From: an uncultured Gammaproteobacteria bacterium
GTDB lineage: Bacteria; Patescibacteriota; Patescibacteriia; Magasanikbacterales; UBA922
Reading direction: 5' to 3'
NCBI GenBank assembly: GCA_965231005.1
Contig: OZ246405.1
Span: 949,657-1,013,656, forward strand
Length of the DNA: 64,000 bases
Below are positions 5,923 through 43,634 of this stretch, piece by piece. The notes under the pieces were generated by a model that saw only the letters and a program-made list of their open reading frames with translations, had not been told where the DNA came from and did not search any database. Position 1 is the stretch's first letter. Each line of letters opens with the position of its first letter. The translations under genes were made by a program, and so were the position numbers.

Positions 5923-5936
5923 ATCCAATAAACATA

Positions 5937-5961
5937 AAATCCAGCCAAAAGGCTGGATTTT
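5937..5961. terminator. bidirectional intrinsic terminator (CCAGCC-aaaa-GGCTGG flanked by A/T runs)
   Basis: aaaatCCAGCCaaaaGGCTGGatttt between convergent genes. Confidence 0.65.
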
Positions 5962-5982
5962 ATAATTTGGTATAAAGTCTAC

Positions 5983-6246
5983 TTAGTCTGTGCTAGTCAT
6001 GTGTCCAGAAACGAGCTTTGTCATTTCAAACATGTTTACTTCATCTTTACCAAAGAGAGGACGAAGTTTGTCATCAGCGAAAATATTTCGCTTATTTGCG
6101 GGATTTTGAAGATCATGCTTCTTGATGTACTCCCACAATTTTTTAACCACTTGCCCACGTGGCATTGGTCCTTTTCCAACTACAGCTTCTAGCTCGTCAG
6201 AAAGGTTGAGAGGCTTAAGAAGCGCTGGGTTTGCTTTTCTTGGCAT
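5983..6246 (-). CDS. SWIB/MDM2-domain protein
   Basis: 'LSDELEAVVGKGPMPRGQVVKKLWEYIKKHDLQNPANKRNI..DDKLRPLFGKDEVNMFEMTKLVSGH' matches SWIB domain pattern. Confidence 0.7.
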   Translation of the reverse strand: MPRKANPALLKPLNLSDELEAVVGKGPMPRGQVVKKLWEYIKKHDLQNPANKRNIFADDKLRPLFGKDEVNMFEMTKLVSGHMTSTD

Positions 6247-9047: not shown

Positions 9048-9118
9048 TCGGGGATCGTCTAATGGTAGGACACCAGGTTCTGGTCCTGGGTATCAGGGTT
9101 CGAATCCTTGTCCCCGAG
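9048..9118 (+). tRNA. tRNA-Gln (anticodon CUG), no encoded CCA
   Basis: Manual cloverleaf: acceptor TCGGGGA/TCCCCGA, D-stem GTCT/GGAC (one G.U), anticodon stem CCAGG/CCTGG with loop TTCTGGT, T-arm CAGGG-TTCGAAT-CCTTG, discriminator G. Confidence 0.8.
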
Positions 9119-13067: not shown

Positions 13068-13170
13068 ACTTTTATTATTTCAATACAAACTTTGTTGAGG
13101 TAATAAAAGTGTAGACTTTCCTTTGAGAGTAAACACAACCTGGCAAACACCCGACATGTCGGAGGACATC

Positions 13171-13464
13171 ATGCAACAGCCGCACACTGACGCTTCTACC
13201 GAGACGACAACTCACCCTGATGAGGCAGCTTCCCTGACCTTCGCAGACCTGGACGACGGCGAGCACTTCCTGGTCATCAACGATCTCATGGAAGTCATGG
13301 ACACCCCAGACGATGCGATCACGATTTGGCGCAAGCTCGGCCACAACGGCAGGATGTGCCACAAGGCCAATGCTGCTGGCAACTGCGGCGAAGAAGGCCT
13401 GAAGAGCGGCAAGTGCACGTTCCAGACGTTCGACGACAACACTCCGGTGATTCGCACCAGATAG
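13171..13464 (+). CDS. hypothetical small acidic protein (GC-rich island)
   Basis: GGAGG SD 5 nt before ATG 13171; ~60% GC; ORF-track N-terminus trimmed. Confidence 0.35.
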   Translation: MQQPHTDASTETTTHPDEAASLTFADLDDGEHFLVINDLMEVMDTPDDAITIWRKLGHNGRMCHKANAAGNCGEEGLKSGKCTFQTFDDNTPVIRTR

Positions 13465-13480: not shown

Positions 13481-13714
13481 ATGAGTAGTCCGCTATCTTG
13501 CAGCTGTCTGTGCCATCAAGGTGGCGCCTGTGGCCTTGTCCCCTGTTGTGACCATGCTGGTTTGCGACCTGAACAGATTCGAACTCCTGCTGAGCAAGCG
13601 TTTCTTGCACATGCATTCGAAGTACTTGAGAACCTTCCTGCATCTCGCGAACTTGAGAAACAGGAAGCTGCTGACACAACACACGAGCTTCCTGATGACA
13701 TCATGGTGAACTAG
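13481..13714 (+). CDS. hypothetical small Cys-rich acidic protein (C-x-C-x-C...CC-x-H cluster)
   Basis: GGAGG SD 5 nt before ATG 13481; 'SCSCLCHQGGACGLVPCCDH'; 16 nt after upstream ORF. Confidence 0.35.
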   Translation: MSSPLSCSCLCHQGGACGLVPCCDHAGLRPEQIRTPAEQAFLAHAFEVLENLPASRELEKQEAADTTHELPDDIMVN

Positions 13715-22665: not shown

Positions 22666-23145
22666 ATGTCCAAGACCATCCGAATTGCGATCGCATCTGA
22701 CCACGCTGGCGTGGGAGAGAAAGCTGCTGTGATCCGTGCCCTTGGAATCACTCCAAAAACCATCACGCGAGGACCTGACTACGATGTCAAAGACTTTGGT
22801 CCATCAGAACAAGAGGGGCGCGTAGACTACCCGGCATTCGCAGCCAAGGTCGCAAGAGCAGTTGCGGACGGCACGGTTGACCTGGGCATCCTGATCTGCG
22901 GCACTGGCATTGGCATGTCTATCGCAGCCAACAAGTTTCCTGGCATTCGGGCAGCATTGGCTCACAACGCTACGACTGCCAGACTGGCCCGTGAGCACAA
23001 CAACGCCAACGTACTGTGTCTCGGAGCACGCATGCTCGGCAGGGACCTCATCATCGAGTGCGTCCGTGCTTGGCTCGAGGCCGAGTTTGAGGAACGGCAC
23101 CAACACCGGCTGGACATCATCGCTTCGATCGAGGCTGAAATGTAG
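22666..23145 (+). CDS. rpiB: ribose-5-phosphate isomerase B (RpiB/LacAB family), GC-rich actinobacterial-like
   Basis: 'IAIASDHAG', 'GILICGTGIGMSIAANK', 'ALAREHNNANVLCLG', 'RHQHRLDI'; AAAGGAG SD; ~60% GC. Confidence 0.8.
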   Translation: MSKTIRIAIASDHAGVGEKAAVIRALGITPKTITRGPDYDVKDFGPSEQEGRVDYPAFAAKVARAVADGTVDLGILICGTGIGMSIAANKFPGIRAALAHNATTARLAREHNNANVLCLGARMLGRDLIIECVRAWLEAEFEERHQHRLDIIASIEAEM

Positions 23146-27229: not shown

Positions 27230-27408
27230 TTTTCCACACAAATTCTTGCGAATATAATACTATTGCTGTACAGTACTTATTGTATGAATCACATTGTACG
27301 CACAACAACTACAACTACAAAGACTTTCCAACCGGAGAGGTAGTTGTGTTGTAACAAACAATCAATCAACCACCTCTGCCGAGGTGGTTTTGCATTTGGG
27401 GGGACATA

Positions 27409-27606
27409 ATGGTATATCCGGGTACAGACATCAAAATCCAAAAGGGAGATGCAGTCCATCTCGAGGGTGTCGGAGAAGGGACGATTACCTACGTTGCAAG
27501 ACCAACAGACCACATCCTGGTCACAGTCGAGGTGGGAAGCTACCACAACCTCGATGAGGGGCGGATGAGTGGACTCCGGTTCGTGCGTCGCGGAGCCGCT
27601 GCATAG
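27409..27606 (+). CDS. hypothetical 65-aa protein in GC-rich cassette
   Basis: GGGGGG SD 5 nt before ATG; two leader hairpins upstream (27316-27365, 27371-27392); own terminator downstream. Confidence 0.35.
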   Translation: MVYPGTDIKIQKGDAVHLEGVGEGTITYVARPTDHILVTVEVGSYHNLDEGRMSGLRFVRRGAAA

Positions 27607-30317: not shown

Positions 30318-30346
30318 TTGACATTTTACGTCAATTCGTCTATAAT
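30318..30346 (+). promoter_or_regulatory. consensus sigma70-type promoter (TTGACA-17-TATAAT)
   Basis: TTGACA 30318-30323, 17-nt spacer, TATAAT 30341-30346, upstream of lipoprotein gene. Confidence 0.55.
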
Positions 30347-30378: not shown

Positions 30379-31173
30379 TTGATTATAACTATATTACGTA
30401 CTATGAGAAAAGTACTATTGCCTATAGGAGGAATAGCACTTGCCCTGCTTCTCGTGGGAGCAGGATGTGCAAAGGTCGAGGCACCAAAGACATCTGATTC
30501 AAGCAAGGATAAGCCTGCTGTAACAGAAAAAGCAGACGTGCCACCAGTAGAAACAAACAGTAAAAAAATTACCCTTTCAGCAACACCAATTGAGCTTGCT
30601 GGACAAGTATATCTTCAATGGGCTGTACCTGAACAGTTCAAAAGTGATGAAGGATATCGTCTTGTAAGAAGTAAGAACGAAAATCCTACATTCCCTGGAA
30701 ACTTCTGGTTCCACCAAGAAGCAGACAGAGACCACATTACCTGGATCGACATTCCAGGAGGTACATGGCACTTCCGTATCTGTCAATTTGTAGATGGTGC
30801 ATGTGCAGCATACAGTGACGACGTGAGTGTTATAGTCCCAATGTCAAGCATTGAGGCAAAAACAAGCACTCCAGAAAATGTTGTAAAAGCATTTTACGAA
30901 GCACTTATTGAAAACAGAGAAGATGCATTGCAATATGTTCCACTTTCTATTCAGAATTCAGATCGATTCAAAAGAAAATGGGAACAAACAAAAGACTGGC
31001 AATACATGAATGTAAAAATTGGTGAGCCACGCGAAGATGTTGATGGCGGATATTTCGTAGATGTTCACATTGGTATCCGCATTGGTGACAGTGATAGAAC
31101 AGAACAAGGAAAAGATCAAGTATCAGTTGAAAAACGTGGAAAGAAATGGTGGGTAACAAGTTTTCCAACATAA
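30379..31173 (+). CDS. lipoprotein with beta-sandwich region and NTF2-like/SnoaL-like C-terminal domain
   Basis: signal peptide + lipobox 'LLVGAGC'; start could be M9 (30403). Confidence 0.5.
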   Translation: MIITILRTMRKVLLPIGGIALALLLVGAGCAKVEAPKTSDSSKDKPAVTEKADVPPVETNSKKITLSATPIELAGQVYLQWAVPEQFKSDEGYRLVRSKNENPTFPGNFWFHQEADRDHITWIDIPGGTWHFRICQFVDGACAAYSDDVSVIVPMSSIEAKTSTPENVVKAFYEALIENREDALQYVPLSIQNSDRFKRKWEQTKDWQYMNVKIGEPREDVDGGYFVDVHIGIRIGDSDRTEQGKDQVSVEKRGKKWWVTSFPT

Positions 31174-31186
31174 TTTCATTTCAATT

Positions 31187-31217
31187 AAAAAGCCGCTCGT
31201 TCTGAGCGGTTTTTTTA
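31187..31217. terminator. bidirectional intrinsic terminator (AGCCGCTC-gttctg-AGCGG flanked by A/T runs)
   Basis: aaaaAGCCGCTCgttctgAGCGGttttttt between convergent genes. Confidence 0.65.
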
Positions 31218-31233
31218 TTTTAGCTAAAAATAA

Positions 31234-33094: not shown

Positions 33095-35137
33095 TTATTT
33101 TTTATCTTGTTTTTTAAGCTGTCGAATTTCATCGCGAAGAATCGCTGCAAGTTCAAATTCTAATTCTTTTGCAGCCTTCTTCATCTTCTTTTCTTTTTCT
33201 TTAATAATTTGTTCAATTGGTCGTGCATCTCCTAAAAGATCCAGATCTAAGACATTTGCTTTTCGCTTTGCATGTTTTTCTTTTTTCTTCTTTGTTGCTT
33301 CAGGATCAATACCAAACTCTTCTAAAATATTCTTAATATTCTTTTGAATAGTCTTTGGGGTGATCTTATGCTTTTTATTATATGCAAGCTGAAGCTTCCG
33401 ACGTCTGTCTGTTTCAGCAAGTGCTCGTTTGATAGAACCAGTTACATTATCTGCATACAAAATGACTCGACCATCTGCATTTCTTGCTGCACGTCCAATG
33501 GTCTGCACAAGACTTGTTTCACTTCGCAAAAATCCTTCTTTGTCTGCATCAAGAATTGCAACAAGAGAAACCTCAGGAATATCTAACCCTTCTCTGAGCA
33601 AATTCACCCCAACAATCACATCAACAACTCCCTTTCGCAAATCTGTAATAATTTCAATTCTTTGCAGCGTATGAATGTCGCTGTGCAAATATGAAACCTT
33701 AATTTTTTTCTCTTGCAAATAATCTGTTAAATCTTCTGCCATCTTCTTTGTAAGTGTTGTAACCAAAATTCTTCCACCACTCTGTATTGTGTTTTCAATT
33801 TCTTGAATAACATCATCAACTTGAGATTTATTCTTTTTTCCTTCTGTGACTGGTCGAATATCTACTTCTGGATCAACTAAACCAGTTGGACGAATAATTT
33901 GTTCATGCACGTGTGAACTCTCTTTTACTTCATATTCCGAAGGCGTTGCAGAAACATAGAGAACATTGTCCACCCGTTTATCGAACTCATCAAACTTCAG
34001 TGGTCGATTGTCCTTTGCACTTGGTAAACGGAATCCATGTGTTGCCAATGTTTCTTTTCTTGCTCTGTCCCCATTAAACATAGCGCGAATTTGTGGAACA
34101 GTAACATGAGATTCATCAATAACAGTTAGAAAATTAGCATCCCCATTTCCAGACGTATGTCTAAAATAATCCAATAGTGTGAATGGCGGCTCCCCTTCCT
34201 GCCTTCCTTCGAAATGACGAGAATAATTTTCAATTCCATTGCAATATCCAATATGCCGTATCATTTCAAGATCATAGCTTACTCTTCTTTTCAATCGTTC
34301 ATATTCAAGAACCTTTCCAGCCTTTTTGAAATATGCAAGACGTTCCTTTAATTCTTGCTCAATACTTTTTTCAGCACGCTGTCGAGAAATCTCATTAACA
34401 ACATAATGTTTTGCAGGAAAAAACCAAGCATCTTCGATTTCCTGAATAATTTTTCTTGTTACTGAATCAATGATTTCAATAACATCAATATGATTACTTA
34501 TTTCAAATCGATAAATCCGCTCTTCATTTATTGGCATGATCTCAAATACTTGTCCACGCATACGAAATGATCCACGTTTCAAATCTGCATTTGTTCGTTC
34601 AAACTGCATTTGGATTAATTGATCAAGCATGCCACGTCTGTCTAGCTTTTGTCCTTTTCTCAAATGAAGAACAATTTTTTCATACTCTGTTGGAGAACCC
34701 AAACCATAAATTGCAGAAACAGATGCAACAATAATTACATCCTTTCTTGAAAGTAATGCCTGTGTACATGCATGACGCAGTCGATCAATTTCCTCATTTA
34801 CTTGTGCTTCTTTTTCAATGAATGTATCAGACGATGGAAGATATGCCTCTGGCTGATAATAATCATAATAACTTACAAAATATTCAACCGCATTATCTGG
34901 AAAAAACTCTCTAAACTCATTGCACAGCTGAGCAGCCAATGTTTTATTATGTGCAATAACAAGTGTTGGGAGTTGTGTTTGTTCAATAACATTGGCAACA
35001 GTAAATGTTTTTCCTGATCCAGTCACACCAAGCAATGTCTGTCTTTTATCTCCCTTTTTTACACCTTGAACAAGCCCTTTGATTGCTTTGGGCTGATCTC
35101 CAGTAGGTTTGTAATTTGAGACAAGTTTGAACGCCAT
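33095..35137 (-). CDS. uvrB: excinuclease ABC subunit B
   Basis: '[10 protein letters not shown]', helicase motifs, beta-hairpin region, C-terminal UVR domain. Confidence 0.9.
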
Positions 35138-35232
35138 AATTTGGTAACTATATCAAATATTTAGTGAATATTCAATGTTCTTTATTTTTTTGAATAAGAG
35201 AAAGTTATCCACAAAATATTTCGCTAATTTAT

Positions 35233-35261
35233 TGACTTTCTTTAGATTTACTTGATATATT
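35233..35261 (+). promoter_or_regulatory. putative promoter TTGACT-17-ATATAT ahead of GC-rich non-coding region
   Basis: TTGACT 35233-35238, 17-nt spacer. Confidence 0.35.
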
Positions 35262-35267
35262 TTTTAT

Positions 35268-35892
35268 GTGGTGCTGTGTAACAAGCAGAACAATCACTGA
35301 TGTGAGCCCGGTGCTCTTCGGGGCCTGCACGCGCACGTTGGTGATGATGCTGTCGCTCTTTGGGTCTTCCAAGGTTGAAAACCCAGGAGGATTTCCAAGC
35401 AATTGGTCAAAAACCCTTAGCTCGACCCAGTCGAGAGAGCAGGCGGAGGGGCCCTGTAACTGCGCGAAAGTGTGGTTGTGATCAACAAAACATGGTTCTC
35501 CCATCATTACAATGTTTCCCTATTACGCACGAGGACACACACTTTCTAAGCCTCGCGGAACAGGAAACAACGTATAGGAGACGGTTAGACTGATTACCGG
35601 ACGGCTTGTCTGGACGGTTTTCTTGGTTAGTTTCAGCCATTGAGTTGTTGGTCGCCTAGGCAGGGTGAGTAAAGCTGCAGTCTTTGTGAGCCACGTCAAA
35701 GTTATCCTTGAACTCTTTTGCCGGCCCTAGGTTCAACCCAAGGAGCTGAGCAATCTGATCGAGTTGCACACATAGGAAGCTCAGACACGCTCTAGGGGGA
35801 TTGTTGCACAGCACCCCCTTTTCTCTCTCCAAAAGCCCATTTTGGGTAGAGATAATAAAAAAAGCCTTATTACAGGGCTTTTTTTGTATTGA
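35268..35892 (+). ncRNA. unidentified GC-rich structured RNA transcription unit 1 (~620 nt)
   Basis: ~55-60% GC in a ~33% GC genome, no credible ORF, dense local complementarity, ends in AAGCC...GGCTT + T7 terminator 35865-35892. Confidence 0.35.
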
Positions 35893-35908
35893 AGATATTA
35901 TAAAAAAC

Positions 35909-35937
35909 TTGACAAATTTACCCTCTTTCTGTATAAT
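35909..35937 (+). promoter_or_regulatory. perfect consensus promoter TTGACA-17-TATAAT
   Basis: TTGACA 35909-35914, TATAAT 35932-35937; typical of stable-RNA promoters. Confidence 0.6.
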
Positions 35938-35942
35938 ACGTC

Positions 35943-36508
35943 GTTGTTCCTACCAGAGCAAGTAGCTAGTGATAGCACCAGCTGTTATCTCAGCGACAAG
36001 TTTTTTTGCGTTGCGGGGTCGTGATGATCGACCTTAGACTCTCGGCTTGAGATGCAAAGACCTGGGGGTAGAAAACTAAGAGATTTTTGTGCAACACTCT
36101 TAGAAGAGACTACCACATCGCCCCTGGCGAGTAACTCTTTCTGACCGTCTGATGTTGGTCCTAGCAAAACTCTGTGGCGGAGCGACCTCTGTGCCGATGT
36201 GACTCGTGGTGCGGTTGAACAATCCGTCTTGTCTTCTTAAATGTTGTGGTCCTGTTGAAATCAGGTAATCCGAAAGGATGGGGGCGGCCTAGGCTGTCTG
36301 ATTGCACGACATAAGACCGGGCGAGGAATTCTTCCTTGCTGCCATGATGAGCATTGCTGCGCGGAGAGCCGCGGGCGAGCGTGCGTTTCATTTTTTCCAC
36401 CCCTTGGAGATGGAGCGTGCCTCGCCTGCGGCCTTGATTTTTTTCTTTATCTAAAAAGGTAGAGAGAAAAAAGTAAAACATCCTGATGTGCTCAGGATGT
36501 TTTGTTTT
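35943..36508 (+). ncRNA. unidentified GC-rich structured RNA transcription unit 2 (~570 nt); RNase P-like sequence fragments but not confirmable
   Basis: consensus promoter upstream, terminator 36477-36508 downstream, no ORF; 'AUCAGGUAAUCCGAAAGGAUGGGGGCGG' and 'CACGACAUAAGACCGGGC' resemble RNase P P10-P12/P4 strings but spacing is wrong. Confidence 0.35.
36477..36508. terminator. bidirectional intrinsic terminator (AACATCCTGA-tgtgc-TCAGGATGTT + TTTGTTTT)
   Basis: 10-bp stem; serves RNA unit 2 (+) and the MBL gene (-). Confidence 0.65.
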
Positions 36509-37859
36509 AGACTTCAATGGTTTCTCCAAGTTCGGGAACAAACGCATCAATTCCTAAATCATCTTTTATCCGATGTGCAAGTTCTGTTGCTGCATGTGCT
36601 TCCCCATGAACACAATAGACTTTTGCTGGTTTCTTTTCTGCGTTCGCAATCCAATCAACAAGTTTGTTTTGATCACCGTGAGCAGAGAGCGCACCAATGG
36701 CTTGTATTTTACATTTGACCTGCACATCTTGCCCAAAAATTTTTACTTTTTCAGCACCTTCATACAATCGCCTTCCCAATGTTCCTCTTGCCTGATATCC
36801 AACAATAATGAGTGTTGATTTTGGATCTGAAAGATAGCGAAACAAATGATGCACAATACGTCCCCCATTCATCATACCAGCACCGGCTATTACAATTTTT
36901 GGACCTTTTCTGTGATTAATTTCTTTTGATTCTTGTTTTGATCTTGTAATAATAAGTTGTGGAAATTCAAAAAAGTCATTTCCCTTTGTATATTTTTTAC
37001 ATGCATGTTCATCATAGTATTCTGGATGCTTTTTATAGACTGGCAGAGCATCAATTGCCATGGGACTGTCAAGAAAAATAGGTGCGTCTGGAAGTGTGTT
37101 ATCTGTTTCACTCATTTCATCTAATTCATATAACAATTCTTGTGTGCGTTCAAGTGAAAATGCAGGAATCATAACTGTTCCTCCGCGTTTTACTCCTTCA
37201 GTAATTAAATCAAGAATAATCTGTTTTCTCTCGGTTGTTGTTTCATGAATTCTGTCTCCGTATGTTGATTCACATAATAATACATCTACAGACCCAAGCT
37301 GTTCTGTTTCTTTTAAAATTGGGACATTTGCATTGCCAATATCTCCAGAAAACGCTATTACTTTTCCGCCAATGTGGATTTCAATAAATGATGCACCAAG
37401 AATATGACCTGCATCTTTGAATATTGCATAATCACCATCGCCAAGATCTACCTTTTGGTGGTAGTCAACACCACTGCATTGTGAGACTGCTCTATCAATC
37501 TCTTCCAAGGTAAATAAAATCGGAGACTGGAATTTTTTGTTATTATATGTCATTATCTTGTAGGCGTCTTGCCAAATAAGTTTGGCAAGCCCAGCAGTCC
37601 CCTTTGTCATATATATAGAACCTGTATAGCCATCTCGGATAAGCTTAGGAATCCTTCCACTATGATCATTATGTGCATGACTGACAAGTACTGCATTGAT
37701 TGATGCAGGATCAAAAGGAAAATCATCTGCGTTTCTTCCTTCATTAAAATCACCGCCCTGAAACATACCGCAGTCAAGAAGAATTTTTTTCTTTCCTGTG
37801 TCAATAAGGTGACAAGATCCTGTTACTTCGTGTGCTGCTCCGTGGAACGTTATATTCAT
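36507..37859 (-). CDS. beta-CASP/MBL-fold RNA-metabolising hydrolase (RNase J/CPSF-like)
   Basis: 'HAHNDHSG' motif II, 'MNITFHGAAHEVTGSCHL', beta-CASP insertion, C-terminal His motif. Confidence 0.75.
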   Translation of the reverse strand: MNITFHGAAHEVTGSCHLIDTGKKKILLDCGMFQGGDFNEGRNADDFPFDPASINAVLVSHAHNDHSGRIPKLIRDGYTGSIYMTKGTAGLAKLIWQDAYKIMTYNNKKFQSPILFTLEEIDRAVSQCSGVDYHQKVDLGDGDYAIFKDAGHILGASFIEIHIGGKVIAFSGDIGNANVPILKETEQLGSVDVLLCESTYGDRIHETTTERKQIILDLITEGVKRGGTVMIPAFSLERTQELLYELDEMSETDNTLPDAPIFLDSPMAIDALPVYKKHPEYYDEHACKKYTKGNDFFEFPQLIITRSKQESKEINHRKGPKIVIAGAGMMNGGRIVHHLFRYLSDPKSTLIIVGYQARGTLGRRLYEGAEKVKIFGQDVQVKCKIQAIGALSAHGDQNKLVDWIANAEKKPAKVYCVHGEAHAATELAHRIKDDLGIDAFVPELGETIEV

Positions 37860-41686: not shown

Positions 41687-42268
41687 TCAGTCTGCGACCA
41701 CGGCCCAGGTGTTCCAGTACTCGAGCGTCTCCTTCGCGTTGGTGCGCACGTCGAACATGTCCCAGTCGTTCACCTCGTTGTTGCCACCGGCGAGGTTGTA
41801 GACCAGTCGGTACGGCGTCAACGCAGCCTTGGGACCGGCGAATGCGAGGACTGCGACGATGACGTGGGTGCAGTCGCTCGCCTTGATCCGCGCTTCTTCC
41901 TCGGGCTCGTCAGCGATGTCCGGATCGTTCAGGTACGCATCACGCGTGTACACCACGCAAGCCAGACCTTCGACTTCGGCAGCCTTGTCTCGACGCAGGA
42001 ACATGCCGGGCTGGCCCCGGTGCGTACGAACCACGTAGTCGTCCGGATCCTTGGACTTATGACCCACACCGGCCGACACCGACGACCACGCAGACTCGGG
42101 CAGATGCACGAAGTGCTGACCTTCTGCACGGTCACCCGACGAGTCATGGGAATCGACCGCGCTGGTCAGTGCAGCCATGAACGAATCGGTGTCGATGACC
42201 TTGGAACCGATCACACCAGTGCTCTTGAAGGCGGTCAGGTCGCCGTAGATCTCAAACTTGATGCTCAT
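41687..42268 (-). CDS. hypothetical protein (GC-rich island, gene 2 of 2)
   Basis: GGGAGG SD, start at second ATG (6-nt spacing); ~60% GC; no recognisable motif. Confidence 0.45.
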   Translation of the reverse strand: MSIKFEIYGDLTAFKSTGVIGSKVIDTDSFMAALTSAVDSHDSSGDRAEGQHFVHLPESAWSSVSAGVGHKSKDPDDYVVRTHRGQPGMFLRRDKAAEVEGLACVVYTRDAYLNDPDIADEPEEEARIKASDCTHVIVAVLAFAGPKAALTPYRLVYNLAGGNNEVNDWDMFDVRTNAKETLEYWNTWAVVAD

Positions 42269-42329
42269 CATGTGCCTCCCGGCGTTGTAATCCAATCGAC
42301 CAGCAAGGTCGAAGGATGTAGAAAATGTG

Positions 42330-42594: not shown

Positions 42595-43317
42595 CTAGCG
42601 CCGTGCGCGGCGATCAGCCCGGTCGAACCGCATCTCGATGGCCTCAGCCTCGATCTCAGCCTGCTGCTGTCTCACTTCCCCGGTCAGATCCCCGTGCGTA
42701 GCGATGTGCAGAGCGAGCATCTGCTCGAGCAGATCGATTTCCTGCTGCGCGCGACTCCACTGGCTCTCTTCCGGAAAGTCATACAGATCCGTGGTCTTGC
42801 ACCTGATCTCGTCGAGAAGCGTCACCTGAAAGGTCCACGGATCGCAGAGCTCGGGGAACTTGCGCGTGTGGCAGACCTTTCGGATGAAATGCCAGATGTG
42901 ATTCAGACGCGAGGGCTTTTCCTCGACGAACGAACCCGCACCCTCGACCACCGAGCACTGCTTGACTTCACCGTCTGCGACCTCGAGGACGAAGTAGGGC
43001 TCACGAGCCTTGCGCCAGCCCGGGCTGTACAGGCCGATGGTCAGCGTGGTGTCAGTTGCACGAACCTGCATGCGACCGCTGGAAGTGGTGTAGCAGAGTG
43101 CGCCTTCACCATCGAGCGTCCACGTTGCCTTGGTCCAGCCGAACTCGCCTTGCGGGGGCTTCTTGTCCTTGCGGGTCTCGACCAGCTTGTGCAGCTCTCC
43201 GATGTTGATGTCCGCAGGACTAACCCCGGGGGGATGACAGGTGTGACGCAGCATCCGCATGATGTACATCACGAGAGCAACGATGTTTTCAAACCGATTC
43301 TTCTTGACATTGGCCAT
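42595..43317 (-). CDS. hypothetical protein (GC-rich island, gene 1 of 2)
   Basis: AAGGAGGT SD 5 nt upstream of ATG 43317 (ORF 42595..43476 trimmed); C-terminal Arg/Glu/Gln-rich helix. Confidence 0.45.
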   Translation of the reverse strand: MANVKKNRFENIVALVMYIMRMLRHTCHPPGVSPADINIGELHKLVETRKDKKPPQGEFGWTKATWTLDGEGALCYTTSSGRMQVRATDTTLTIGLYSPGWRKAREPYFVLEVADGEVKQCSVVEGAGSFVEEKPSRLNHIWHFIRKVCHTRKFPELCDPWTFQVTLLDEIRCKTTDLYDFPEESQWSRAQQEIDLLEQMLALHIATHGDLTGEVRQQQAEIEAEAIEMRFDRADRRARR

Positions 43318-43634
43318 TGTGCACCTCCTTGGTTGTGCGAATGAGCGGCCAAACTCATGCGCTAGTGCGACCATGTTCATTATTGTTAATGGAAATGGTT
43401 GCACTACCAAGGTGGTATAAAAAGAACGGCCTTTGTGTAGAATTTTTTGCCTACACAAGACAACGTAGTCTAGCACAAAAAAAGGCTTTTGTCAAGGGGT
43501 TTTTGGCCTTTTTGGGCTAAAATAAAGGAAAAAAACAATAATTTTAGAACTTTTATGTTTTCTTGATAATAGATTTATTAATATTATTCCTGTACGGTTG
43601 ATATATAGATCCAAAATGTGTTTAATTATATACA

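Follow-up and report, generated by a model that had tools for sequence, protein, structure and literature searches.

Large bacterial noncoding RNAs (ncRNAs) of several classes offer precedents for the locus described here, a gap without genes that separates uvrB from a beta-CASP nuclease gene and carries two candidate RNA genes, which we call U1 and U2. The gap lies within a 64,000-nt stretch of contig OZ246405.1 (the window, numbered from its first nucleotide) that derives from a member of the Candidate Phyla Radiation (CPR). CPR bacteria, or Patescibacteria, have ~1-Mb genomes with very little noncoding DNA, and to our knowledge almost nothing is known of their RNA biology beyond peculiarities of their rRNAs. 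New bacterial ncRNA families are common, and our literature search returned neither a paper about such ncRNAs in CPR bacteria nor one about the source project, PRJEB17505.

By analogy, the best-fitting logic for U1 and U2 would be that of multi-hairpin regulatory or sponge RNAs, as exemplified by RNAIII and the Rsa RNAs of Staphylococcus aureus and by the CsrB/Rsm group. RNAIII (~514 nt) and the Rsa RNAs, the latter with C-rich loops, are encoded in AT-rich genomes, have their own promoters and terminators, extend over several hundred nucleotides that form numerous stable hairpins, and diverge rapidly outside of a few loops. The two units resemble them in promoter, terminator, size, hairpins and divergence, but have no sequence or covariance model (CM) relation to them, no embedded peptide gene and no target in the 64 kb; their host is a CPR bacterium, and their C-rich loop signal, an over-representation of C at predicted unpaired and loop positions, is only suggestive. 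CsrB/CsrC and RsmX/Y/Z are comparable in their strong expression (deduced from promoters in the present case), their fast evolution and their variable length and copy number, which extends to tandem paralogs; there are three units in each of two relatives (loci L006 and L054) and two in the window. As in those RNAs, short exposed motifs occurring in repeats would carry the function, and not a conserved core. However, GGA is not enriched in the units, no repeated motif survives correction for multiple testing, and the unit bodies are multi-branched and GC-rich instead of being arrays of small GGA hairpins. A further group of large RNAs (OLE, GOLLD, ROOL, raiA and HEARO) is similar in size (~300–800 nt), in elaborate predicted structure and in being found as GC-rich intergenic regions of AT-rich genomes. 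Unlike those RNAs, which have conserved nucleotides and CMs in Rfam, the units match none of these models and lack a core that is shared between genera.

The gap (35138–36506, 1.37 kb) separates uvrB (33095–35137, − strand), encoding a 680-aa protein with Pfam domains ResIII, UvrB_inter, UvrB and UVR, from a − strand gene (36507–37859) for a 450-aa beta-CASP nuclease of the metallo-beta-lactamase (MBL) fold with Pfam domains Lactamase_B, Beta-Casp and RMMBL, the nearest named relatives of which are from Candidatus Magasanikbacteria. On its + strand the gap contains two promoter-equipped, terminator-bounded noncoding units with features typical of selected RNA structure. The first, U1 (35268–35887, ~620 nt), is divergent from uvrB, and the second, U2 (35943–36508, ~565 nt), is convergent with the nuclease gene; their putative ends were placed from promoter and terminator positions, and together they take up ~2% of the window. 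We lean toward the reading that U1 and U2 are independent, highly expressed structured ncRNAs of a fast-evolving, lineage-restricted family occupying the beta-CASP/uvrB slot in one Candidatus Magasanikbacteria clade. This family appears to be new; U1 and U2 match none of the 4227 Rfam families.

Both units are preceded by promoters that are close to the bacterial consensus. The U2 promoter (35909–35937, + strand) is a perfect TTGACA-17-TATAAT (12/12 positions), which is one of only two such sites with a 17-nt spacer in the 64 kb (the other is at 30318); perfect or one-mismatch promoters number four in the window, compared with 1.2 expected. The U1 promoter (35232–35261, + strand; 10/12) consists of TTGACT, an 18-nt spacer and TATATT, with an extended −10 TG. 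A first-pass annotation of this DNA, made from the sequence without database searches, had read the latter as TTGACT-17-ATATAT, and its −35 element at 35232 stands, the scan reading the spacer and −10 element as given here; it had described the U2 promoter correctly. It had also proposed a hairpin followed by seven T residues at the end of U1, and there is indeed an intrinsic terminator at 35855–35887 (+ strand), composed of an A-tract, a GCC/GGC core and seven U residues. The terminator it had placed at the end of U2 with a 10-bp stem is present at 36475–36503, where scan and fold show a 12–13-bp stem; this terminator is bidirectional and is common to U2 (+) and the beta-CASP gene (−). The contrast in base composition with the AT-rich surroundings is likewise real, as GC content is 37.2% for the window, 47.5% for 35229–36515, 49.4–49.5% for the units and 51.5–52.7% for the unit bodies, which places the latter three values 10–15 points over the genome. 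The figure of ~55–60% given earlier is too high, and a value of 64% is reached only at the local 100-nt peak.

No evidence of coding capacity was found in the gap. The longest open reading frame (ORF), and the sole one called there by gene callers, is ~128–129 aa in length, antisense to the units and overlapping the beta-CASP stop codon, and an exhaustive HMMER search of 1.84 billion representative proteins with it returned only itself (a singleton cluster). The gap has no Pfam or NCBIfam match. Three-base periodicity is missing, with ratios of 2.5 (U1) and 1.0 (U2) versus 4–38 in coding controls, GC-rich ones included, and the + strand has no ATG, GTG or TTG ORF of at least 12 aa preceded by a Shine–Dalgarno (SD)-like motif. 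A concatenated six-frame query found no homolog, but this search also missed an identical ORF that is present in the database. A protein gene or pseudogene was rejected on the basis of the missing open frame, periodicity, homologs and domain matches, and an alternative genetic code was rejected because all six frames contain stops under any single-stop reassignment. Thus, the claim that there is no credible ORF holds, and a conserved coding frame with homologues, which would have spoken against the noncoding reading, was sought and not found.

Known RNA families are also missing from the gap. All 4227 models of Rfam 15 were searched against the window at gathering score, where a tRNA-Gln at 9048 is the sole match, and against 35100–36600 with permissive filters at E≤10, where the only matches are terminator look-alikes (Thr/Phe leader, rimP and similar) of 13–24 bits, far under their thresholds. 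ARAGORN likewise reports the tRNA-Gln only and no transfer-messenger RNA (tmRNA) in the window, and the units of relatives have no Rfam match at E≤0.5. Signal recognition particle (SRP) RNA, group I and II introns, ribozymes, riboswitches and the OLE, GOLLD, ROOL, raiA and HEARO RNAs were therefore set aside, there being no CM match to any of them.

The + strand of both units behaves like structured RNA. Folding z-scores are −5.75 for U1 and −6.45 for U2, compared with −1.35 and −2.90 for the respective antisense strands. Clearer evidence of strand-specific structure than these z-scores comes from a count of stems of at least 4 bp that are capped by GNRA or UNCG tetraloops, a test that is independent of folding energy. 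U1 and U2 together contain six such hairpins in the sense strand (1.5 ± 1.2 expected; P ~0.003) and none in the antisense strand, with U1 contributing four sense and zero antisense hairpins. Controls have no such excess, with 3 versus 3.6 expected in the GC-rich coding cassettes of the window and 2 versus 4.9 in uvrB plus the beta-CASP gene. When 17 units from 11 genomes are taken together, the sense strands contain 23 tetraloop hairpins versus 6.9 ± 2.7 expected (reached in 0 of 200 shuffles), and the antisense strands contain 5 versus 8.6.

Two further structural features involve the ends of the RNAs. In U1, which is predicted to be multi-branched, a terminal helix of 15 contiguous pairs joins the 5′ strand GGUGCUGUGUAACAA (35270–35284) to the 3′ strand UUGUUGCACAGCACC (35801–35815, with flanking GGGGG and CCCCC that could form a competing hairpin), wherein the partners lie 516 nt apart. 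A test of 5′–3′ pairing with RNAduplex across all units had low power, and U1 alone stood out (z −2.8). The helix is followed by a penultimate hairpin with a pyrimidine-rich 5′ arm and a purine-rich 3′ arm (35822–35852), and then by the terminator. The minimum free energy (MFE) fold of U2 is predicted to comprise two multi-branched domains and a three-hairpin 3′ module. This module begins with a long GC-rich hairpin (36368–36432) of 28 pairs, 6 of them G-U, with the apex UUCCACCCCU; its predicted energy is −44.7 kcal/mol on the + strand versus −30.7 on the antisense strand, a loss of 14 kcal/mol. A penultimate hairpin with U-rich and A-rich arms (36438–36471) and the bidirectional terminator complete the module. 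In the predicted folds the fraction of C-runs that are unpaired is 0.44, versus 0.14 for G-runs. The string UUCCACC(C)/GCCACC is found repeatedly in apical loops, one of them at the tip of the long hairpin of U2, and the C-rich apical loops include UUCCACCCC. These unpaired C-runs are suggestive of the regulatory or sponge logic.

Sequence changes in these end structures are compensated in relatives. The unit that we take as the counterpart of U1 in locus L004 (L004_uA), from the nearest AT-rich relative, has a terminal helix of 13 pairs and different sequence. Comparison with U1 reveals that all 13 pairs are preserved, of which 6 are unchanged, 2 differ on one side and 5 differ on both sides. 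In the penultimate hairpin of U1 the outer stem is UCUCU/AGAGA, where L004_uA has CAUUUG/CAAAUG, and the terminator core is GCC/GGC in U1 and CGC/GCG in L004_uA, such that pairing is kept in both. The long hairpin of U2 has counterparts in L004_uB, L005, L056 and L054_u3. The U2-type 3′ module was aligned for U2, L005, L056 and L054_u3, and RNAalifold gave a consensus of five helices in which 90.7% of cells are paired versus 74.3% in column shuffles, and in which 21 pairs are changed on both sides versus 9.5 expected; neither value was reached in 500 shuffles. Slid registers yield 52–57% pairing. Consensus helix 4, corresponding to the penultimate hairpin of U2, has both-side changes in 8 of its 14 pairs.

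We compared 50-odd loci around beta-CASP homologs to learn how the slot is filled elsewhere. The genes keep the order p226, beta-CASP, uvrB and DUF218, and the gap between beta-CASP and uvrB ranges from 19 to ~1970 nt. Nine genomes with beta-CASP identities of 66–79% (L004, L005, L006, L027, L028, L029, L051, L054 and L056) have one to three units in the gap, all ORF-less, ended by a terminator, facing the beta-CASP gene and preceded by promoters that match 10–12 of 12 consensus positions. Members of the family are characterized by a near-consensus promoter directed toward the beta-CASP gene, by a body that lacks ORFs and is enriched in GC, and by a 3′ module of two hairpins and a terminator, and U1 and U2 have all of these. 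Gap GC is above that of its own locus in most of the nine genomes, with little or no difference in L051, L054 and L056, which are richer in GC. Sense-strand z-scores range from −4.3 to −12 for the tested units of L004, L005, L006, L027 and L028, and from −4 to −12 when L029 is counted as well. A tenth locus, L024 (79%), has a ~250-nt unit with a weaker promoter adjoining uvrB, plus a small ORF. Occupied slots occur at beta-CASP identities as low as 61%; in most of the more distant relatives (64% or less) the gap is short, and many relatives keep uvrB and the beta-CASP gene with a 20–180-nt gap and no unit. Among relatives the units vary from 145 to 780 nt in length and from zero to three in copy number. 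The picture that emerges from these comparisons is one of units at matching positions throughout a deep clade, with architecture kept and sequence not.

Three of these loci have features of their own. In L054 (4331–5419, − strand) three tandem units each follow TTGACA-17-TATA(C/G)T, and units 2 and 3 have a common 5′ hairpin in which an anti-SD-like arm, CCUCUUUCCACC, is paired with an SD-like arm, GAAGGAGG or GAGAGGAGG. In L027 (5019–5034) and L028 (2039–2054) the unit terminator, GCCUCAAUAUUGAGGU followed by a U-run, lies on the antisense strand within the beta-CASP gene, near the 3′ end of its coding sequence. This overlap reaches ~35–55 nt into the coding region and is the only stretch that is conserved between both units.

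Homology between units is detectable by nhmmer at a level that is weak but positionally correct. U1 matches L004_uA at E 2e-4 to 7e-4 among units, and in a search of all loci it matches the syntenic site at E 0.01; U2 matches L056 at E 0.005, L005 matches L056 at E 2.6e-8 and L027 matches L028 at E 6e-12. Tandem-paralog pairs are found within L054 (u2/u3, E 3e-4) and L006 (uB/uC, E 7.5e-6). Comparison of the relatives' syntenic units by blastn gave no similarity, and global alignment z-scores between units are marginal. A CM built from the 3′ module scores 99 bits for U2 (a training sequence), 36 bits for the 3′ end of U1 (E 2e-7), 32 bits for L006_uC and 25 bits for L029. Because the model finds the U1 3′ end, U1 and U2 are probably diverged tandem paralogs.

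In U1, the 3′ strand of the terminal helix (35798–35815) is also complementary at 15 of 18 positions to U2 36208–36225, a stretch similar to the 5′ end of U1, and at 11 of 12 positions to U2 36088–36099 (overall chance expectation ~0.1). This complementarity could reflect pairing of U1 with U2 in trans or a trace of paralogy. In sample ERZ930061 the assembly breaks inside U2 (~36069–36116), where one contig of the pair L002/L003 ends at nt 127 and another starts at nt 174; the assembly from sample ERZ930065 runs unbroken across U2. Heterogeneity among strains could account for the break, as could a problem of coverage or structure at this spot. Contigs from other samples do not differ from each other, and hence are uninformative on strain polymorphism.

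Several observations weigh against the reading of U1 and U2 as members of a structured ncRNA family. Part of the folding signal resides in the 3′ hairpins, which weakens the z-scores: when these hairpins are removed, the values are −2.4 for the U1 body and −4.6 for the U2 body (−0.3 and −0.6 for the antisense bodies), and that of the U1 body falls within the range of coding controls (+1.7 to −3.9). The covariation of the 3′ module derives from four sequences, its structure comes from the same alignment, and one of its helices is the shared terminator; more generally, there are no relatives with at least 90% identity, so covariation draws on two to four sequences. The 3′-module CM also matches ordinary bidirectional terminators at 20–29 bits, and therefore the conserved 3′ module is partly generic, a house-style terminator architecture. 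The unit bodies share no conserved motif, shared k-mers and motifs being not significant, and the enrichment of C-rich k-mers (z 3–4) is not significant after multiple testing. One relative within the same identity range, L026 (74%), has no units and L024 has other content, and thus the units are dispensable. No significant complementarity of U1 or U2 to the rest of the 64-kb window was found, and no target or partner was identified. Lastly, the transcription and transcript ends of U1 and U2 are inferred from sequence.

Double-hairpin or bidirectional terminators with A-tract and U-tract arms are common in these genomes, with examples at 5926–6056 and 31136–31223 of the window and at many loci elsewhere. 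The CM match at 5926–6056 is one such ordinary bidirectional terminator and was rejected as a candidate member of the family.

Among the alternatives, the one that best survives, though we judge it improbable, is that the units are functionless transcribed relics, wherein GC-rich foreign DNA, sharing its origin with the GC-rich coding cassettes of the window, entered a permissive slot and lost its frames, and promoters that were resident or arose fortuitously now drive its transcription. The window does contain several GC-rich (51–61%) foreign-looking coding cassettes, the unit bodies cannot be aligned between genera, copy number varies from zero to three, L026 dispenses with the units altogether and the fold z-score of the U1 body is modest. 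Against this explanation, there is neither leftover periodicity nor a translated homolog. Nor does this explanation sit well with the presence of 10–12/12 promoters in the same orientation in every unit-bearing genome, with a tetraloop excess that is strand-specific and missing from the coding cassettes, with the compensatory changes in the U1 terminal helix and 3′ module, or with a slot that stays occupied across deep divergence, to the 61% identity noted above.

Slightly less probable still is a role in cis, in which strong transcription convergent on the beta-CASP 3′ end and divergent from uvrB would regulate or insulate these genes by transcriptional interference or by antisense pairing at the 3′ end, the RNA body being incidental. 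The invariant orientation toward the beta-CASP gene, the shared bidirectional terminator in the window and the placement of the L027 and L028 unit terminators within the beta-CASP coding region speak for this explanation. Constant orientation would, however, also result from vertical inheritance and tandem duplication, and interference requires neither a 250–780-nt GC-rich, tetraloop-capped body nor a covarying 5′–3′ helix. In addition, U2 lies between U1 and the beta-CASP gene, U1 has a terminator of its own, and many relatives keep both genes without any unit between them.

A more doubtful proposal holds that the units are structured mRNAs for very small peptides, such as a hok-like type I toxin, or carry unannotated micro-ORFs. 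The U1 fold-back helix that joins its 5′ and 3′ regions is like the fbi element of hok mRNA, and other GC-rich cassettes of the window encode proteins of 65–100 aa behind structured 5′ untranslated regions (UTRs). Yet the + strand offers no SD-preceded ORF of at least 12 aa and no periodicity, none of the ORFs in the gap encodes a hydrophobic peptide, and there is no evident antisense promoter or partner. A type I toxin–antitoxin system of the hok/sok kind was accordingly rejected for its missing SD-preceded ORF and for want of a convincing antisense promoter, the fold-back helix itself being present.

It is very unlikely that either unit is one of the universal stable RNAs (RNase P RNA, 6S RNA, tmRNA or SRP RNA) in a form that has diverged or been reduced, split or rearranged. 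The promoters are strong, as expected of stable RNAs, and a P1-like helix joins the ends of U1; this helix of 15 bp is a generic feature and by itself is no indicator of RNase P. The first-pass annotation had pointed to strings in U2 reminiscent of RNase P RNA, and these exist at 36260 and 36305; AUCAGGUAA..GAAAGG and CACGACA.AA..CCGG resemble segments of Escherichia coli M1 RNA, with a GAAA-capped string that is like part of the M1 specificity domain of RNase P RNA types A/B. On inspection they amount to a hairpin with a GAAA cap and to a short match whose spacing is wrong. RNase P RNA has universally conserved P4 strands (GGAAAGUCC ... ACAGAA..GGCUUA), and the P4 strings GGAAAGUCC and GGAAAGTCC, along with GAAAGTC, AAAGTCC (AAAGUCC in the RNA) and ACAGAA, are missing from 35200–36550, in agreement with the earlier failure to find the P4 5′ strand. 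There is no match to RF00010, RF00011 or RF00373, and orthologous units share no conserved regions. RNase P RNA was therefore rejected for its absent CM match, absent P4 and wrongly spaced strings. Likewise, tmRNA, which is defined by a tRNA-like domain (acceptor stem, T-arm, CCA-proximal end) and a tag reading frame, was rejected because ARAGORN reports none in the window and no model of the tmRNA clan in Rfam matches.

The case of 6S RNA is similar. It resembles the units in its strong promoter, in the pairing of its 5′ and 3′ ends and in keeping structure above sequence, and L004_uA and L024_u enclose ~200 nt. However, 6S RNA is a rod of about 180–200 nt with a central bubble, whereas the predicted MFE and centroid folds of U1 and U2 are multi-branched over 565–620 nt (a structure prediction that is not decisive by itself); U1 exceeds the expected length threefold, relatives can dispense with the units and no Rfam match was found. 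For universal RNAs in general, conserved sequence blocks would be expected at such divergence and the units share none, and some relatives do without units. The Infernal search that the first-pass annotation had proposed, against Rfam models for RNase P, tmRNA, 6S RNA, SRP RNA and introns, thus matched no family on the 1.5 kb at E≤10 or in the relatives' units at E≤0.5, and its suggestions of a reduced or rearranged RNase P RNA, a 6S-like RNA or an intron-derived RNA are not supported. Its broader view of stable RNA genes was right in kind, in that the units are separate, strongly promoted, terminator-bounded and noncoding with a + strand that behaves like structured RNA, and its option of a large riboregulator would be nearest to our own reading. 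Its description of the gap, promoters, terminators and quoted strings was thus largely sound, with the GC figure as the part that failed.

Equally improbable is an RNA of a mobile element (a group II intron remnant, an IS200/IS605 omega RNA of the HEARO type, a retron msr/msd or an integron attC cassette), for which the variable content and copy number of the slot, the long imperfect hairpins near unit ends and inverted repeats at the unit 5′ and 3′ ends that are like a retron a1/a2 pair might be cited, but against which stand the lack of a reverse transcriptase, TnpB, IscB, integrase or transposase in or beside the slot at any locus, of an Rfam intron, HEARO or retron match, of flanking target-site duplications or terminal repeats, of similar DNA in blastn searches of phage and plasmid collections or in two exact-pattern IMG/VR scans, and of a further copy within the window, the GC-rich islands of which are mutually unrelated.

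Returning to the reading we prefer, in which U1 and U2 are independent structured ncRNAs, we can outline how they might work. A housekeeping RNA polymerase of the sigma-70 type would start at the near-consensus promoters, whose motifs are observed, and each transcript would stop at its intrinsic terminator, which for U2 would be the bidirectional one held in common with the convergent nuclease gene. Each RNA is predicted to fold into a multi-branched body with GNRA or UUCG tetraloop caps. Its 5′ end would be buried in a helix, which in U1 would consist of the 15 bp formed with a segment 516 nt downstream, and its 3′ end would be held in stacked hairpins, with the long GC hairpin in U2, then the pyrimidine/purine-rich hairpin and then the terminator. 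Locking of both ends in this manner may protect against 5′- and 3′-dependent RNases and allow the RNAs to accumulate. We infer from these features that U1 and U2 are highly transcribed, stable and active in trans.

Between genera the slot, promoter strength, orientation, enrichment of GC and structure, and 3′ module would persist while body, length and copy number drift. Since only architecture persists, we reasoned that action in trans most likely proceeds via generic structure and short exposed C-rich loops, which could titrate a protein or pair with G-rich ribosome-binding sites. A ribozyme or a universal ribonucleoprotein core is unlikely because the bodies have no conserved core, copy number ranges from zero to three and some relatives lack units.

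A bolder and distinctly tentative extension is that the clade keeps a dedicated "RNA slot" for one to three abundant, heavily structured RNAs, wherein sequence is replaced between genera and selection holds promoter, orientation, end-locking and GC-rich structure. Such RNAs would represent an undescribed accessory class in ultra-small symbiotic bacteria. They could serve as molecules of an arms race or host interaction, or could titrate either a protein or ribosome-binding sites; they would not be a variant of a housekeeping RNA.

Abundant structured RNAs in a streamlined CPR genome that are conserved by architecture and locus instead of by sequence would be unusual, and the proposal is testable. 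If expressed, U1 and U2 would give a first, tractable instance of regulatory or accessory RNAs that are specific to a CPR lineage, and a case study of an RNA gene that is kept by architecture, not sequence. If they are transcribed junk, then even the genomes of streamlined symbionts tolerate such DNA. As a practical result, a false RNase P lead has been removed.

The window includes other GC-rich islands, most of which proved to be coding cassettes; such cassettes (51–61% GC) lie at 394–1251 (−), 13160–13464 (+), 13482–13714 (+), 22666–23145 (+), 27401–27598 (+), 41687–42295 (−) and 42595–43476 (−). They have strong GGAGG or GGGGG ribosome-binding sites and clear codon periodicity, and some lie near a promoter- or terminator-like site (43495–43467 and 13938–13910). 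A family match was obtained only for 22666–23145 (RpiB, Pfam 1e-52), the rest being without Pfam or NCBIfam matches. These cassettes look like horizontally acquired accessory genes scattered in an AT-rich CPR genome. The 65-aa ORF at 27401–27598 and a small ORF of L004 (9913–10309, −) both have a 5′ UTR hairpin, CCACCUC...GAGGUGG, followed by a G-run ribosome-binding site (27322–27400 and L004 10220–10250, respectively), and this hairpin may be a conserved leader of this cassette type. Finally, the other perfect promoter of the window (30318–30346, +) precedes a 264-aa A-rich ORF (30379–31173) with no Pfam family, the product of which is presumably a very highly expressed protein of no recognized family.

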